From Eledone cirrhosa (taxonomy: Eukaryota): a DNA stretch of 28,547 nucleotides. The stretch's first letter is position 1, and every line of letters starts with the position of its first letter. The stretch is taken from NCBI GenBank assembly GCA_964016885.1, contig CAXHJY010000732.1, forward strand, positions 1 through 28,547. The letters run 5' to 3'. The notes under the pieces were generated by a model. It was given only the letters and a program-made list of their open reading frames with translations, was not told where the DNA came from and searched no databases. The position numbers and the translations under genes were made by a program. Positions 5,943-13,353 of this stretch are shown here, in pieces.

Positions 5943-5959
5943 GCTCAACGATATGGAGC
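5943..5959 (-). promoter_or_regulatory. Bulged hairpin GCUC-C auauc G-UU-GAGC, 20 nt upstream of ATG
   Basis: Same motif at the same position in PLE-2 (12823-12840). Confidence 0.6.
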
Positions 5960-6091
5960 AGTTAATAGTATTAGTTATACTATTTATGGTTATGTAAACA
6001 CAAAACCTTAAGCAGTTGTAAGTATTTTACACACACCCTAAATAGTGGTAGGCAGTAATGTATTACTACCTTATTACCAGTAAGTTAAGTA

Positions 6092-6125
6092 GCTCAATGT
6101 AAAAACATCAGATGATTTACAGAGC
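6092..6125 (-). promoter_or_regulatory. Bulged hairpin GCUC-UGUAAA..UUUACA-UU-GAGC just 3' of the pseudo-LTR end
   Basis: Equivalent hairpins at 7563-7623 and 13334-13353. Confidence 0.6.
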
Positions 6126-6129
6126 AGTT

Positions 6130-6497
6130 ATATGAAATATAAGAATCAAAGAACTGTTCAAAACATTATTGTGCTTACAGCTGTTTCCTCCAAACCGAGG
6201 TTTGGATTCTTCGGAGCAATTTATTAATGCATGGACAGTTATATGACCTCCTTTTCAGCCGAGAGACATACCAATACATATTCAAACATTGATACATATT
6301 CAAACATTGTGGGTCAACATTCATTACAGAATTTAGAGTGGCAGTACACACTTCGAGATTACATTTATATTAATAGGTACAATCAAAAATCAAAGATATA
6401 GGTTAAAGTACAACATGAAGATAAGTGGTTGTATAGTGCAAATGTTATATGTGTGGCACGCATGTGCGTCTTGTTTATATAGTGTGGCAGAGAGATA
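6130..6497 (-). repeat. PLE-1 5' pseudo-LTR (partial tandem copy)
   Basis: Direct repeat of 1931-2298. Confidence 0.95.
6172..6218 (-). ncRNA. Hammerhead ribozyme, second copy of 1973-2019
   Basis: Identical sequence. Confidence 0.8.
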
Positions 6498-6510
6498 CTA
6501 ATACTAATAC

Positions 6511-7037
6511 TATATATATATATATATATATATATATATATATATATATATATACATATATATATATATATATATATATATATATATATATATATATATA
6601 TATATATACATATATATATATATATATATATATATATATATATATATATATATATATATATATACATATATATATATATACATATATATATATATATACA
6701 TATATATATATACATATATATATATATATACATATATATATATATATATATATACATATATATATATATATATATATACATATATATATATATATATATA
6801 TATATATATACATATATATATATATATATATATATACATATATATACATATATATATATATATATATATATATACATATATATATATATATATATATATA
6901 CATATATACATATATATATATATATATATATATATATATACATATATATATATATATATATATATATATACATATATACATATATATATATATATATATA
7001 TATATATATATATATATACATATATATATATATATAT
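6511..7037. repeat. (TA)n microsatellite with CA interruptions
   Basis: Direct reading. Confidence 0.99.
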
Positions 7038-7112
7038 ATACATTATGAAGAGAGAAGAAACATTTAGATATAATTAGTAATAAAATGTATCATACCTAAA
7101 CTGTTCCTAAAT

Positions 7113-7200
7113 TCCTCGACTACGTAGTTTCGTGGCATAAACAAAAACAATATATCAAAGATATAGAGTCCTTGCGAGGTCTGCCGACTTATCAAGAGGA
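7113..7200 (-). ncRNA. Type I hammerhead with U3-A8 core (UUGAUAA) and expanded stem II
   Basis: UCCUC-UUGAUAA-GU c GGCA...UGCC AC-GAAA-C uacgua G-UC-GAGGA; GUC triplet. Confidence 0.8.
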
Positions 7201-7703
7201 TACCTCATTTTACTAGTCTCAAGAACGCGTCTACACGACGTGAGAAAGAATCCCAAAAGGCGGAGGGGGAGATAGTCACGCGATATAACGGTCGAGAAAC
7301 AGAGCTAAGCCTCTTATAACCACGAAAAAAATACCACGGAGGCGGAGGGGGTATTCATATTGAGGCCGTAGAAGAGGTAGTGAAGAAGGCGAGAAGTATG
7401 AGTAATGGAAGCTTTCCAGTTGTCCCCACACTTCAAAGATTGCTCGACCAGAGGGAGTTATTAATACATTTAGAAACACACAGATACATGCGGACACACA
7501 CATATATACATGAATGCATCCGCACCCAACTGTGAGTTAAGGGTACCAACTTCACCGATGTTGCTCAATGAATGACTGGGACAGACCAATTCAGTTTGAA
7601 CCAGACTGAACCAGTATCAGAGTTAAAAATACATTATGAAGAGAGAAGAAACATTTAGATATAATTAGTAATAAAATGTATCATACCTAAACTGTTCCTA
7701 AAT

Positions 7704-10049: not shown

Positions 10050-10214
10050 ATATAAAAATAATAAAAATAAAAATTTACATATAAAAATATTAAAAATAAA
10101 AATAAAATAAAATAAAATAAAAATAAAATAAAATAAAAAATAAAAATATTATAGAATACTACAATACTAAAAGAATAAAAATAAAAATAAAAATAAAAAT
10201 GAAAATAAAAATAA
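10050..10214. repeat. (ATAAA)n-rich low-complexity tract in PLE-2 3' UTR
   Basis: Direct reading. Confidence 0.85.
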
Positions 10215-10586
10215 ACCACAAAGAACAACCCTTCAAAGTTAATTGACAATATATTGCCAAGTTCACTACAAGACAAAGCCAAAAATTATCTATCAAATCA
10301 CATCTAGCAAGGAATATCGCAAAAAAGATTATGATGTCCAATAATGTCTACATATGTTCCTATATTTAATATATAAGTTTATCAAGTGTAAGGTTAATTC
10401 AAAAAATTTGGAGCATCGGCTTTTAGGGTAGCTTAATTTTTCATGAGGAATGTTTAGATAAAAATAAAAATAAAAATAAATAAAATAAAATAAACAATAA
10501 AAAGAGTAAAAAGAGGGAATCAAAGATTTAGGAATCAAAAGATTTATCGGCTAGTTCTCATATAAATATAAATCAAACTAAATATA

Positions 10587-12801
10587 CTACATTTTAAATT
10601 TAAATTTATATTTAAACGTTGAGTTTAATCTATGTTTGCAACAACTGAATAAATTTGTCCGTAGGTTAAGGGAATTTTTAGATTTTAGTATAAAGAATAT
10701 CTCCTCTGCGCAGAGGTCACATGTCTCAGAGGATGAATTAAAAGGAATCCCTCTTGAGACTATATTCCAAGCCGTCGAATATCTAACGTTATCTAGCTTA
10801 AGTTGCCAGAGTACACCTGATAGTGCCGTTGAAGATTTTTTATTTGGATCTGTGAAAGAATTCTTGTGGTTATTATAGCGAAGTTTAAATTCCGTCGATG
10901 TGGAACCGACGTAGTTAAAAGAATTAGAGTCAGTATTAACATTACAATTGTATACTATATTTTTAACTAAGCAGTTGTTATTTAACGGACATTTAGATCT
11001 ATCTCTACAGTTACATTTGTTAACTTGTATATTATTTATGCTATTATCAGTAGGTTTTAAGTTCCTATTATTTATTCTATTAATATTTTGTGCTAAATTT
11101 TTGGTGGATGAGAAGGTTAATTTAATTGTATGCCTATTGAAGATTGAGTGGTACCTATGTGTTCTAGGGAAGCGATTATCAAGAGCTTTGAAAAATAATT
11201 TAGCGATGTGGGTTTTAATGTTTAGTGAGAAAGGGGGGGGCAAACCAAATTATGTTCCTAGTTCTATTTCTTTTTTGTCCTTTGGAATTATTGTAATGCT
11301 TTCTATTATAGTTGTTAATGTTGTTGCCGTAATTAAAAAAGTTGTTACTTTGTTTAGTTTGTTTATCATTATCTATGTACACAATCTTATCAGCATACCC
11401 TGCCCTAGCTAGTGCATCATTATAGTATTGGGCCTTTTCGTCAAAAATCTTTCTATTCGACGAGATCCTAGAGATACGTTTTTGGACTGAGTTTACTATA
11501 GTGTTTTTGACAGATCTGGGGTGGTTAGAGTTAAAGTTGACATAGTTTAAGTTTTCATTCAACTTGTGAAAAGGATAGTGGAGACATGTGTTGAGATTTA
11601 ATGTTATATCTAGGAAATTGACTATTCTATGGTTGTTCTCAATTTCTATTTTAAGGTTAAAGTAATTAAAAAATTTTGTAATTTGTTTACATTTTCTATT
11701 TAGTTCAGGGTTATTATTATTAATAAGTAAAAGCATGTCATCCCTATATAAACCTCCGGTAGTACCAGGTATTTTCCTATGTAGCGAATTGATTAAAAAT
11801 AAGCCCACAAGGTCAGTTACCTGAGCTGAGTCGGAAGATCCCATAGTTATGTCAAAATTGCTATCTCTATCTGCTCTGGTCCATAATTTGTCATCAAATT
11901 CTATCAAAGTTTTCCTAGCCGATAATATAATATGCATTTCTTTGCTAGTTAGGTCCGTATGTTTGAATGCGTAATTTAGTGCCTTATTTAGTAGACTAGG
12001 GGTAATAGAAGAATAATAGTTAGCTATATCAAGTTGAATAAACCTATTATTATTGTCATATTTAATTTGCCTAAACCACTCAACAACCTCTCCAGTTCCC
12101 TTCCACAAGCTCAGGTTAGATACATAATCCAAGTTCTTAATTTGCAGTATCACCCTGTCAAGAATGTTTTTGCTTAATTTGCCCAGGTCCGATTTTGAAG
12201 GTGCGATCAATCTAACTGGCAGGTCAATCTCAAAATTCCTCTTGTGGTCCTTCATATTGATCTTCGGTTTCCTGGGCACGAAAGGTTGTGTTCTGTTCTC
12301 AATTTCCAACTCATGCATTATACAAGATGCTTCAACATTCATTTTCTCAAGTTCGGTCTTATCTGCTACCTTGTATTTTTTCCTCAGCTCTTTCAGTATG
12401 AGGCCATTATACATGTCTTTCTGCACTCCATAGAGGTTGTTGGTCTTGTCAGATTTCACCAAGATCTTCTCAGTTTTCTCTAAGCTCTCAATGTTATCCT
12501 TAATGCCTTTCAGATATTCCTGGCCTTTAAAGTTTCTCTTGAATTTGACCCCTTGTATGATAGAAATTATATCGTTTTCAAAGTCAGATAAAAGTTTGTT
12601 AGGGGGTGGATTTCTTTTAGATTTGAAAACTTTGTTTAAGTCCGAGATATTTTCGTCTGCATTAAATTTATCAAAGTGGAATGCACGCCACCTGATTCTC
12701 CTTATAAAAGAGTCAGATTTATCTATTAGTTGTTTTACAAAGTCTTTGTTTCTAGGTAGAGGTATGTCTTTTAGAGAGGAAGTAATCTTAAAGAATTCCA
12801 T
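10587..12801 (-). pseudogene. Penelope-like RT + GIY-YIG ORF split by one frameshift (737 aa if one C is removed)
   Basis: ORF 11215-12801 has FIQLDIANYY, ITMGSSDS, GGLYRDD; ORF 10587-11243 has CNCR..CPL, IVY..YVG, CDLCAEE; frames join at the G8 run 11233-11240 (WFAPPF/S); collinear with PLE-1. Confidence 0.92.
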
Positions 12802-12822
12802 TTTTCAGTTATAATATAAAGC

Positions 12823-12840
12823 GCTCAACAGTATTGGAGC
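12823..12840 (-). promoter_or_regulatory. Bulged hairpin GCUC-CA auac UG-UU-GAGC, 21 nt upstream of ATG
   Basis: Matches 5943-5959 in structure and position. Confidence 0.6.
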
Positions 12841-12852
12841 AAGATAATGTAA

Positions 12853-13328
12853 ATTGATACACTTACTCAAAATGACCTCCCACTACCTAATTTTTCTATA
12901 TCTATATTTATATATGTATCTATCTCTATTTCCTCTCTCTCTCTATATATATATATATATCTCTTTCTGTCTCTTTACATGAAGCTCTTCGCTTTATCTA
13001 TTTTTCCATCTCTCTATTTTGTCCCATGCATTTCTTCTTTTTCTTTTTCTTCTTTTTCTTCCTTTTCTTCGTTTTGTCTTTCTTTCTTTCTTATTTCCCT
13101 CTTTTCTCTCTCTCTTTCTTTCTCTCTGTATTTTCACTGCTAGAGTAAATCTCTTCAAATGAAGTTGATGTTTATTACGGTATGTCGAATATATTTATCT
13201 ATAAAACTGTTTATATTGTATTTTGTCTGATGAAGGCATAGCATATTGTTAATATGATATCCCCGAAATATATATAATGAAATAAATATGGTTTTATAAA
13301 TATAGTTTTCCATTTATTTAATATTGTA
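12853..13328 (+). repeat. PLE-2 inverted pseudo-LTR
   Basis: Inverted repeat of 8964-9439. Confidence 0.93.
13219..13284 (+). ncRNA. Hammerhead ribozyme, inverted copy of 9008-9073
   Basis: CTGATGA at 13227, GAAA at 13265. Confidence 0.85.
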
Positions 13329-13333
13329 AATAT

Positions 13334-13353
13334 ACTCCAAGTATTTGTCGAGT
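13334..13353 (+). promoter_or_regulatory. Bulged hairpin ACUC-CAA guau UUG-UC-GAGU just 3' of the pseudo-LTR end
   Basis: Covarying outer pair (A-U instead of G-C) relative to other copies. Confidence 0.6.

Follow-up and report, generated by a model that had tools for sequence, protein, structure and literature searches.

The window analyzed here is a 28,547-nt stretch of the Eledone cirrhosa genome assembly GCA_964016885.1 (contig CAXHJY010000732.1, positions 1 to 28,547, forward strand), in which three elements inserted into (TA)n were found, including two Penelope-like elements (PLE-1 and PLE-2) and a 591-bp tandem element without an open reading frame (ORF). All three represent young and abundant families in the 3.0-Gb genome, and all carry two copies of a short bulged hairpin, one for each end of the insertion. 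PLE-1 (1930–6497, minus strand) consists of one long arm with 1.09 copies of a 4199-bp monomer, its 3′ end being at the hairpin-1 site and joined to (TA)n, and contains an 819-aa ORF (3463–5922, minus strand). Its hairpin 1 (6092–6125, minus strand) has insertion ends 3–9 nt to its 5′ side, while hairpin 2 (5943–5959, minus strand) is located 166 nt past hairpin 1 and has ends 5–8 nt to its 5′ side. A type I hammerhead-like motif with a variant core and a palindromic stem III is present at 6171–6219 (minus strand), with a second copy at 1972–2020, and its predicted cut lies 50 nt before hairpin 1; the motif was read by eye and was not recognized by Rfam. The PLE-1 inter-hairpin spacer (5960–6091, minus strand) is predicted to form long stems, and its span of 166 nt is close to the 165 nt of the 591-bp element.

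The 591-bp element (7043–8105, minus strand) comprises 1.8 units, and its 3′ end is its own hairpin-1 site. Its hairpin 1 (7563–7623, minus strand) has A-C at the outer position and a long insert, and its hairpin 2 (7442–7458, minus strand; second copy 8033–8049) is located 165 nt past hairpin 1 with insertion ends 3–5 nt to the 5′ side; a hammerhead-like motif with a U3-A8 core was read by eye at 7704–7791 (minus strand) and again at 7113–7200. An assignment of this element to PLE-1 from the nearly equal spacing (165 vs. 166 nt) was considered and not adopted, as its hairpin 2 resembles that of a 713-aa family. The long arm of PLE-2 (8968–12852, minus strand) also has its 3′ end at the hairpin-1 site and is followed by an inverted arm (12853–13398, plus strand) that ends at the hairpin-2 site (–7). 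The PLE-2 ORF, which begins at 12801, carries a frameshift in the window copy (528 aa), whereas most relatives have a 738-aa open frame. Hairpin 2 of PLE-2 (12823–12840, minus strand) lies 91 nt past hairpin 1 in uninverted copies, hairpin 1 (13334–13353, plus strand) has an A-U outer pair, and a hammerhead-like motif with a canonical core was read by eye at 13220–13283 (plus strand) and 9009–9072 (minus strand). By eye, the type I hammerhead-like motif precedes the first hairpin by 50–85 nt in all three elements. A relative of the PLE-2 3′ end (82% identity) with a hammerhead occurs at 24253–24500 (plus strand) and also ends at the hairpin-1 site into (TA)n.

The 819-aa ORF aligned end to end with its relatives as a single ORF encoding a reverse transcriptase (RT) together with GIY-YIG at the C terminus, with domains assigned from motifs; no significant match was obtained with the element proteins in Pfam and PDB sequence searches. 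Read against section 11 of PMC8557442, the ORF contains RWR, DKT, CxCX5C, CxxC and CxH motifs. RWR and DKT (an RWK-type motif, and DKT replacing DKG) are present in both the PLE-1 and PLE-2 ORFs, with D and K invariant across 42 sequences. The CxCX5C linker, the absence of CCHH and the late CxxC and CxH in the PLE-1 translation are traits of the Hydra clade, and two further traits of this clade, a hammerhead in the pseudo-long terminal repeat (pseudo-LTR) and insertion in (TA)n, were observed by eye and from the junctions, respectively, with cleavage being predicted. The PLE-1 monomer of 4.2 kb compares with Hydra-clade PLEs that are generally <3 kb, and the RT tree was built by a quick method without the published Hydra references. 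Membership in Naiad was ruled out because the endonuclease is C-terminal. The tandem repeats, one type I hammerhead per unit and lack of an ORF in the 591-bp element are traits of non-LTR retrozymes. No relative was found among the viral contigs searched, and a search for RNA datasets with the PLE-1 5′ region listed none.

The initial annotation, made from the letters of the window, described one hairpin fold at seven sites, with a CUC/GAG stem and a 2-nt 3′ pyrimidine bulge. Six of the seven are as described; the seventh (7524–7537) reads ACUC…GGGU without GAG, has no insertion end mapped to it and was not counted. The distances of 20 and 21 nt from the ATG were correct for the two copies preceding the start codons, and so was the placement beside the pseudo-LTR end, with 3 nt (PLE-1), 5 nt (PLE-2) and 5 nt (591-bp element) between the last matching base and the hairpin, although TA microhomology makes the true start uncertain by a few bases. 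The consensus is GCUC-Y…R-U(U/C/A)-GAGC-A-C-U-N-U, in which the 3′ ACUNU extension is usual, and basal-stem pair probabilities in context reach 0.66–1.0 for PLE-1 6092–6125, PLE-2 13334–13353 and both copies before the ATG. The bulge is indeed 2 nt long but not only UY, with U-U, U-C and U-A in 42, 12 and 7 of 64 hairpins. At the outer pair, for which a G-C/A-U exchange was proposed, PLE-2 hairpin 1 has A-U, but both hairpins of the 591-bp element have an A-C mismatch. Contrary to the description of the flanks as not alignable by eye, they carry signal, including the ACUNU extension and UA at –6/–5 in 27 of 57 hairpins (about 4 expected), where a (TA)n primer could pair. A Watson-Crick partner for ACUNU was found in only 4 of 58 hairpins, six mispaired ones having been excluded beforehand, so no partner is supported. 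An Rfam scan of 1900–13420 returned 66 matches at E up to 5, all below the gathering score; the only one on any of the seven sites was a weak mir-3149 match over 7474–7539.

In the first 120 loci, the junctions to (TA)n lie just 5′ of hairpin 1. Mapping across the whole 5′ untranslated region (UTR) revealed a second end class just 5′ of hairpin 2 in PLE-1, PLE-2 and the 591-bp element. Genome-wide, the exact PLE-1 junctions number 745 for hairpin 1 and 884 for hairpin 2, consistent with the proposal that the position of the motif predicts the priming site. For the 591-bp element, the corresponding counts are 1837 vs. 139, the latter being low; the ends in fetched regions vary in offset and sequence from the single pattern counted. 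The ends are sharp and at a fixed distance from the stem, and internal hairpins in tandem copies remain intact. The first 6–9 bases are recopied at PLE-1 hairpin 1 at a further 391 sites, some of them internal rather than ends. At such sites, and at loci L372 and L373, these bases are copied two or three times, like telomerase repeat addition, and in some copies the stutter is within an arm extending beyond the site. Of 19 repeat ends in metagenome contigs, 13 fall 0–11 nt 5′ of a hairpin, either one.

A genome search with the motif alone, which was out-of-sample, gave 1743 matches compared with 6 for the reversed control. Inspection of 30 of these loci uncovered a second tandem element, ~609 bp long, that lacks an ORF and carries both hairpins (e.g., L406:1431-2647 and G000:C1:81709589-81748545, an array of tens of units). 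In 9 of 10 loci, the end of this element is 3 nt ahead of the GCUC engaged in pairing across a long insert, rather than at the nearer GCUC, which the pattern had matched, indicating that the end position follows the fold.

The initial annotation overlooked the pairing of the sites: the two copies act together, one per insertion end. Among the junctions listed over the initial 382 Mb of contig C1 (132 at hairpin 1 and 100 at hairpin 2), 51 of 52 outward-facing PLE-1 pairs within 15 kb are heterotypic, combining hairpin 1 with hairpin 2 (P about 5e-15 under independence), and the outermost end of the single homotypic pair proved on inspection to be hairpin 2. Sixty fetched PLE-1 regions, 20 picked as pairs and 40 as unpaired, include 41 heterotypic, 16 single-armed, three other and no homotypic insertions. 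The 591-bp element behaves likewise (20 regions: 13 heterotypic, 0 homotypic, one ending 23 nt early and six single-armed), as do PLE-2 (nine of 10 two-ended loci heterotypic) and a 710-aa family (six of eight). The copies in the window follow the rule as well. The inverted arm of PLE-2 ends at hairpin 2 and its long arm at hairpin 1, and PLE-1 carries at its opposite end an inverted hairpin-2 mini-arm of 17 nt (6497–6513, plus strand), in which 11 nt equal to the sequence just 5′ of hairpin 2 and a 6-nt repeat of its start precede (TA)n. Similar mini-arm remnants are present in two of the 14 single-armed loci checked.

The window proteins as queries retrieved near-identical copies only, and a distant relative was used as the query to reach other families. 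This yielded 77 metagenome loci with 34–44% identity to the RT region, 56 of them with a match reaching the N-terminus and 41 with 200 nt upstream, which formed 35 clusters at 80% nucleotide identity. The original descriptor, fixed before any relative was examined and run over the 200-nt stretch upstream of the RT match, matched 28 of the 35 clusters, 18 of them twice, compared with a mean of 0.8 and a maximum of 4 in 300 shuffles. The same descriptor matched 1/35 clusters on the antisense strand and 0–2/35 in five ORF windows. A relaxed descriptor, which includes a UA bulge added after the data were seen, matched 32 clusters. The order in the 5′ UTR is constant, from the hammerhead to hairpin 1, hairpin 2 and the AUG, with hairpin 1 located 26–57 nt past the predicted cut in 21 of the 23 relatives with a called ribozyme and hairpin 2 ending about 10–55 nt ahead of the AUG in most relatives. 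The spacer between the hairpins is 55–83 nt in 25 metagenome elements, and lengths of 91, 106, 165 and 166 nt are also tolerated. It is thus well supported by sequence comparison that the motif is real and recurs in the 5′ UTRs of Hydra-clade PLEs, mostly as two copies. In two families of 710 and 712 aa (L121:1308-1469 and L137), the bulge of hairpin 1 is UA and hairpin 2 has a ~70-nt insert; the 3′ UTR of the 710-aa family also contains a second, partial hammerhead repeat. Two contigs (L158 and L192) each contain two different Hydra-type elements in opposite orientation, and the second element of L192 also has a hairpin after the hammerhead.

Covariation was assessed with the pairing not imposed, and this test is the one relied on, as the aligned pair count rests on an alignment chosen for pairing. 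A CUC was found 9–40 nt upstream of 66 of 67 3′ arms (background, 401 of 1488 ORF windows). In the 44 cases with a single CUC, the outer positions pair in 43 and the upper positions in every case, and neither value was reached in 20,000 permutations. In a tree built by a quick method, the upper pair has changed several times between U-A and C-G, and the outer pair changes from G-C to U-A in both hairpins of one three-member clade, as would be expected if one protein reads both. The near-invariant CUC/GAG would suit recognition by a protein.

Between the two arms of a single insertion, 120 of 16,821 sites differ (0.7%), compared with 3.1% between insertions. The template stretches copied into the arms overlap by up to 3.2 kb, and the arms span a similar range of lengths. 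The predicted ribozyme cut is passed by 49 of 50 hairpin-1 arms and 35 of 51 hairpin-2 arms, the hairpin-1 start is passed by 38 of 51 hairpin-2 arms, and six arms are longer than one monomer; arm ends show no pile-up at the ribozyme site. Arms that run through the cut, past the hairpin-1 start and beyond one monomer indicate that the template is a circular or an uncleaved read-through RNA, which the arm sequences do not tell apart. Circular templates were earlier proposed to explain PLE tandems (PMC4209133).

These observations make it probable that the hairpin pair provides two binding sites that place the RT, with each cut (TA)n strand priming at a different hairpin of one RNA. The features recognized by the protein may be the stem of CUC and GAG with its 2-nt bulge and, usually, the ACUNU on the 3′ side, and the endonuclease would cut both target strands. 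Each primer end would then pair with UA or UAU about 5–8 nt 5′ of a hairpin, and its backward slippage may lead to recopying of the first bases. Both complementary DNAs (cDNAs) would be extended on the same circular or read-through RNA, where the one begun at hairpin 2 would displace its counterpart, and their far ends would join head to head unless one arm aborts. The spacer between the hairpins would then be the "tail" present at one end only, and non-autonomous elements would keep the hairpin pair for mobilization. Two RT molecules, one per hairpin, would be the simplest carrier and would fit the Poseidon protein described below. A more complete scheme, to which we assign somewhat less than an even chance, proposes that the twin-hairpin scaffold loads two RTs on one circular RNA, that each copies from one strand with telomerase-like realignment, which would explain the inverted arms, partial tandems and one-sided tail, and that this code is borrowed by retrozymes.

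A single RT might instead bind both hairpins as one folded platform and prime the strands in turn, as in L1-like twin priming with fixed sites. Heterotypic ends and shared variants are explained equally well in this way, the narrow spacer of the 25 metagenome elements would suit one platform, and no evidence of a dimer was obtained, including from a dimer fold prediction of the first 479 aa. Yet the spacers of 91–166 nt fit a single platform poorly, and classical twin priming leaves abutting arms, whereas those observed overlap extensively and are similar in length, so that a single RT appears unlikely. The sharp ends at a fixed distance from the stem, as if set by a nuclease ruler, could also mean that the hairpins mark an RNA cut or a transcription stop and that the RT begins from a normal RNA 3′ terminus. 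If the RNA stopped at hairpin 1, it could not serve as template for the hairpin-2 arm, and the two RNAs then needed would give random pairs of ends instead of the heterotypic ones that prevail on C1; moreover, a Poseidon PLE initiates internally without cutting (PMC11167929). We therefore consider this explanation improbable.

Still less probable is an action of the motif as DNA, as an endonuclease or repair site at which tandem copies are trimmed 5′ of the hairpin. The Drosophila Penelope endonuclease required tail sequence for plasmid cutting (as cited in PMC11167929), and the tail has been ascribed to endonuclease resolution (PMC8557442). Against this, the TA microhomology and recopied template starts at the junctions are marks of priming, the internal hairpins of tandem copies are not trimmed, and the motif is strand-specific. 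The initial annotation also suggested autoregulation of translation; if this were the main role, the protein would bind near the AUG and repress itself, and the ends would be a by-product. The location of hairpin 2 shortly before the AUG in most relatives agrees with such a role, but the copy before the ATG is itself a priming-site hairpin, and the ORF-less elements retain and use both hairpins; autoregulation thus received no support, and as the main function it is highly improbable, although it could be a side effect of binding. The annotation's further suggestion that non-autonomous elements borrow the motif agrees with the 591-bp element, which retains both hairpins and has ends mapping to both.

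Several observations weigh against priming of each strand at its own hairpin, or restrict its reach. The strict descriptor misses 7 of the 35 clusters, three of which form the U-A clade, and the relaxed one misses three. The outer pair changed only twice independently, and the near-invariance of CUC/GAG leaves those three pairs without covariation support in the alignment. The basal stems of both hairpins of the 591-bp element are not predicted to fold (P = 0.0), and this element and PLE-1 lack the ACUNU extension. The end of one PLE-2 locus (L333) lies just to the 3′ side of hairpin 1, and two of the eight two-ended insertions of the 710-aa family are homotypic, with hairpin 2 twice in L370 and hairpin 1 twice, as different alleles, in L367. 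Six of the 19 metagenome repeat ends are not at a hairpin (two far upstream and four alignment breaks or non-ends). The one-end-per-hairpin rule rests on one genome, as the metagenome contigs are too short and none spans both ends of an insertion. The variants shared by the two arms point to a common source locus, not strictly to one RNA molecule. Finally, the Poseidon stretch printed in the supplement of PMC11167929 has, by eye, no CUC/GAG bulged stem.

Elsewhere in the window, a covariance model picked up a fourth element (17469–17554), the 3′ part of a Hydra-type element from a 713-aa family (16560–17554, plus strand) with hairpin 1 at 17469–17513, which terminates at its own hairpin-2 site, 3 nt before the hairpin-2 position of intact copies. 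Fragments resembling the RT and endonuclease coding sequence of a non-LTR retrotransposon occur at 15548–16504 (minus strand) and 18527–19500, and an inverted repeat with arms of ~330 bp, which is not related to the PLE families analyzed, occupies 19500–20160. A 158-bp direct repeat (99%) with TA arrays on its flanks is located at 25547–25703 and 28390–28547 and may represent a duplication made in assembly or a further small element.

Published work already covers internal initiation, the one-sided tail and inverted arms, and it also treats retrozymes as parasites of PLEs. The initial annotation knew of no description of the motif, and none was found: the motif, its duplication, its link to both starts and the one-end-per-hairpin rule are absent from Rfam and from the full-text literature searched, a scope outside which lie subscription papers, figures and one relevant ribozyme paper. 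Published Hydra consensus sequences contain the hairpins, unannotated. By eye, the canonical form is present in three of the six (Amil-2, Ajap-1 and Ajap-2; Craig et al., 2021, PMC8557442), Crog has a variant, Amil-1 stops short of the hairpin and Obim has none. The words "hairpin" and "stem-loop" do not occur in the main text of that paper, nor "hairpin" and "tail" in the text of its supplement (figures excluded). The tail described there is 30–40 bp and was put down to endonuclease resolution, whereas the spacer here is 55–166 nt.

The paired sites bear on how PLEs choose their RNA and why inverted arms carry a one-sided tail. They supply a motif of 20 nt, two precisely mapped start sites and a rule for their pairing, all testable in a young family with many intact ORFs, and the motif alone is a way to find PLE ends and their parasites. 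If portable, it would be a short tag that sets where RT copying starts. The 591-bp element resembles the non-LTR retrozymes (PMC7229834; PMC4209133; bioRxiv 10.64898/2026.07.22.740005) as a tandem, hammerhead-bearing and ORF-less PLE parasite. The difference is that no recognition signal is named in the available text of these reports, and the mechanism remains to be elucidated according to the preprint; the hairpin pair is a candidate for the signal of retrozyme mobilization.

A close functional likeness is the Poseidon-clade PLE protein PAc (Frangieh et al., 2024, PMC11167929): it cleaves and extends the two strands, initiates at two internal sites bounding the tail, is a predicted dimer and has a binding site near the starts. 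In contrast to the arrangement proposed here, the starts of Poseidon, a member of another clade, lie within one AC-rich stem-loop inside the ORF, and the available text gives no conserved motif and no one-site-per-end rule (PMC11167929). The hepadnaviral epsilon stem-loop (PMC5541001) is likewise a bulged hairpin that binds the RT and fixes initiation, but it templates from the bulge with a protein primer, whereas the start here would lie outside the stem and be DNA-primed.

The template-adjacent elements of telomerase RNA, to which the initial annotation compared the hairpin, are at most a functional analogue. PLE RTs are the closest relatives of telomerase RT, and the internal template of telomerase RNA is set by neighboring RNA structure, with a short primer alignment region, realignment and recopying. 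The position of the hairpins and the frequent recopying of the first 6–9 template bases agree with this comparison, but the PLE RNA is not a separate non-coding RNA with a pseudoknot and activation domain; the elements here lie in the 5′ UTR of the PLE's own messenger RNA, at two sites, and copying is long and processive. In L1 twin priming, two target strands prime on one RNA and produce an inversion, with the second site set by chance microhomology and the arms abutting, whereas here both start sites are fixed and the arms overlap. Judged from sequence, the hairpin would work like an RT-positioning RNA element, which is a known kind, and the paired arrangement is the new part.

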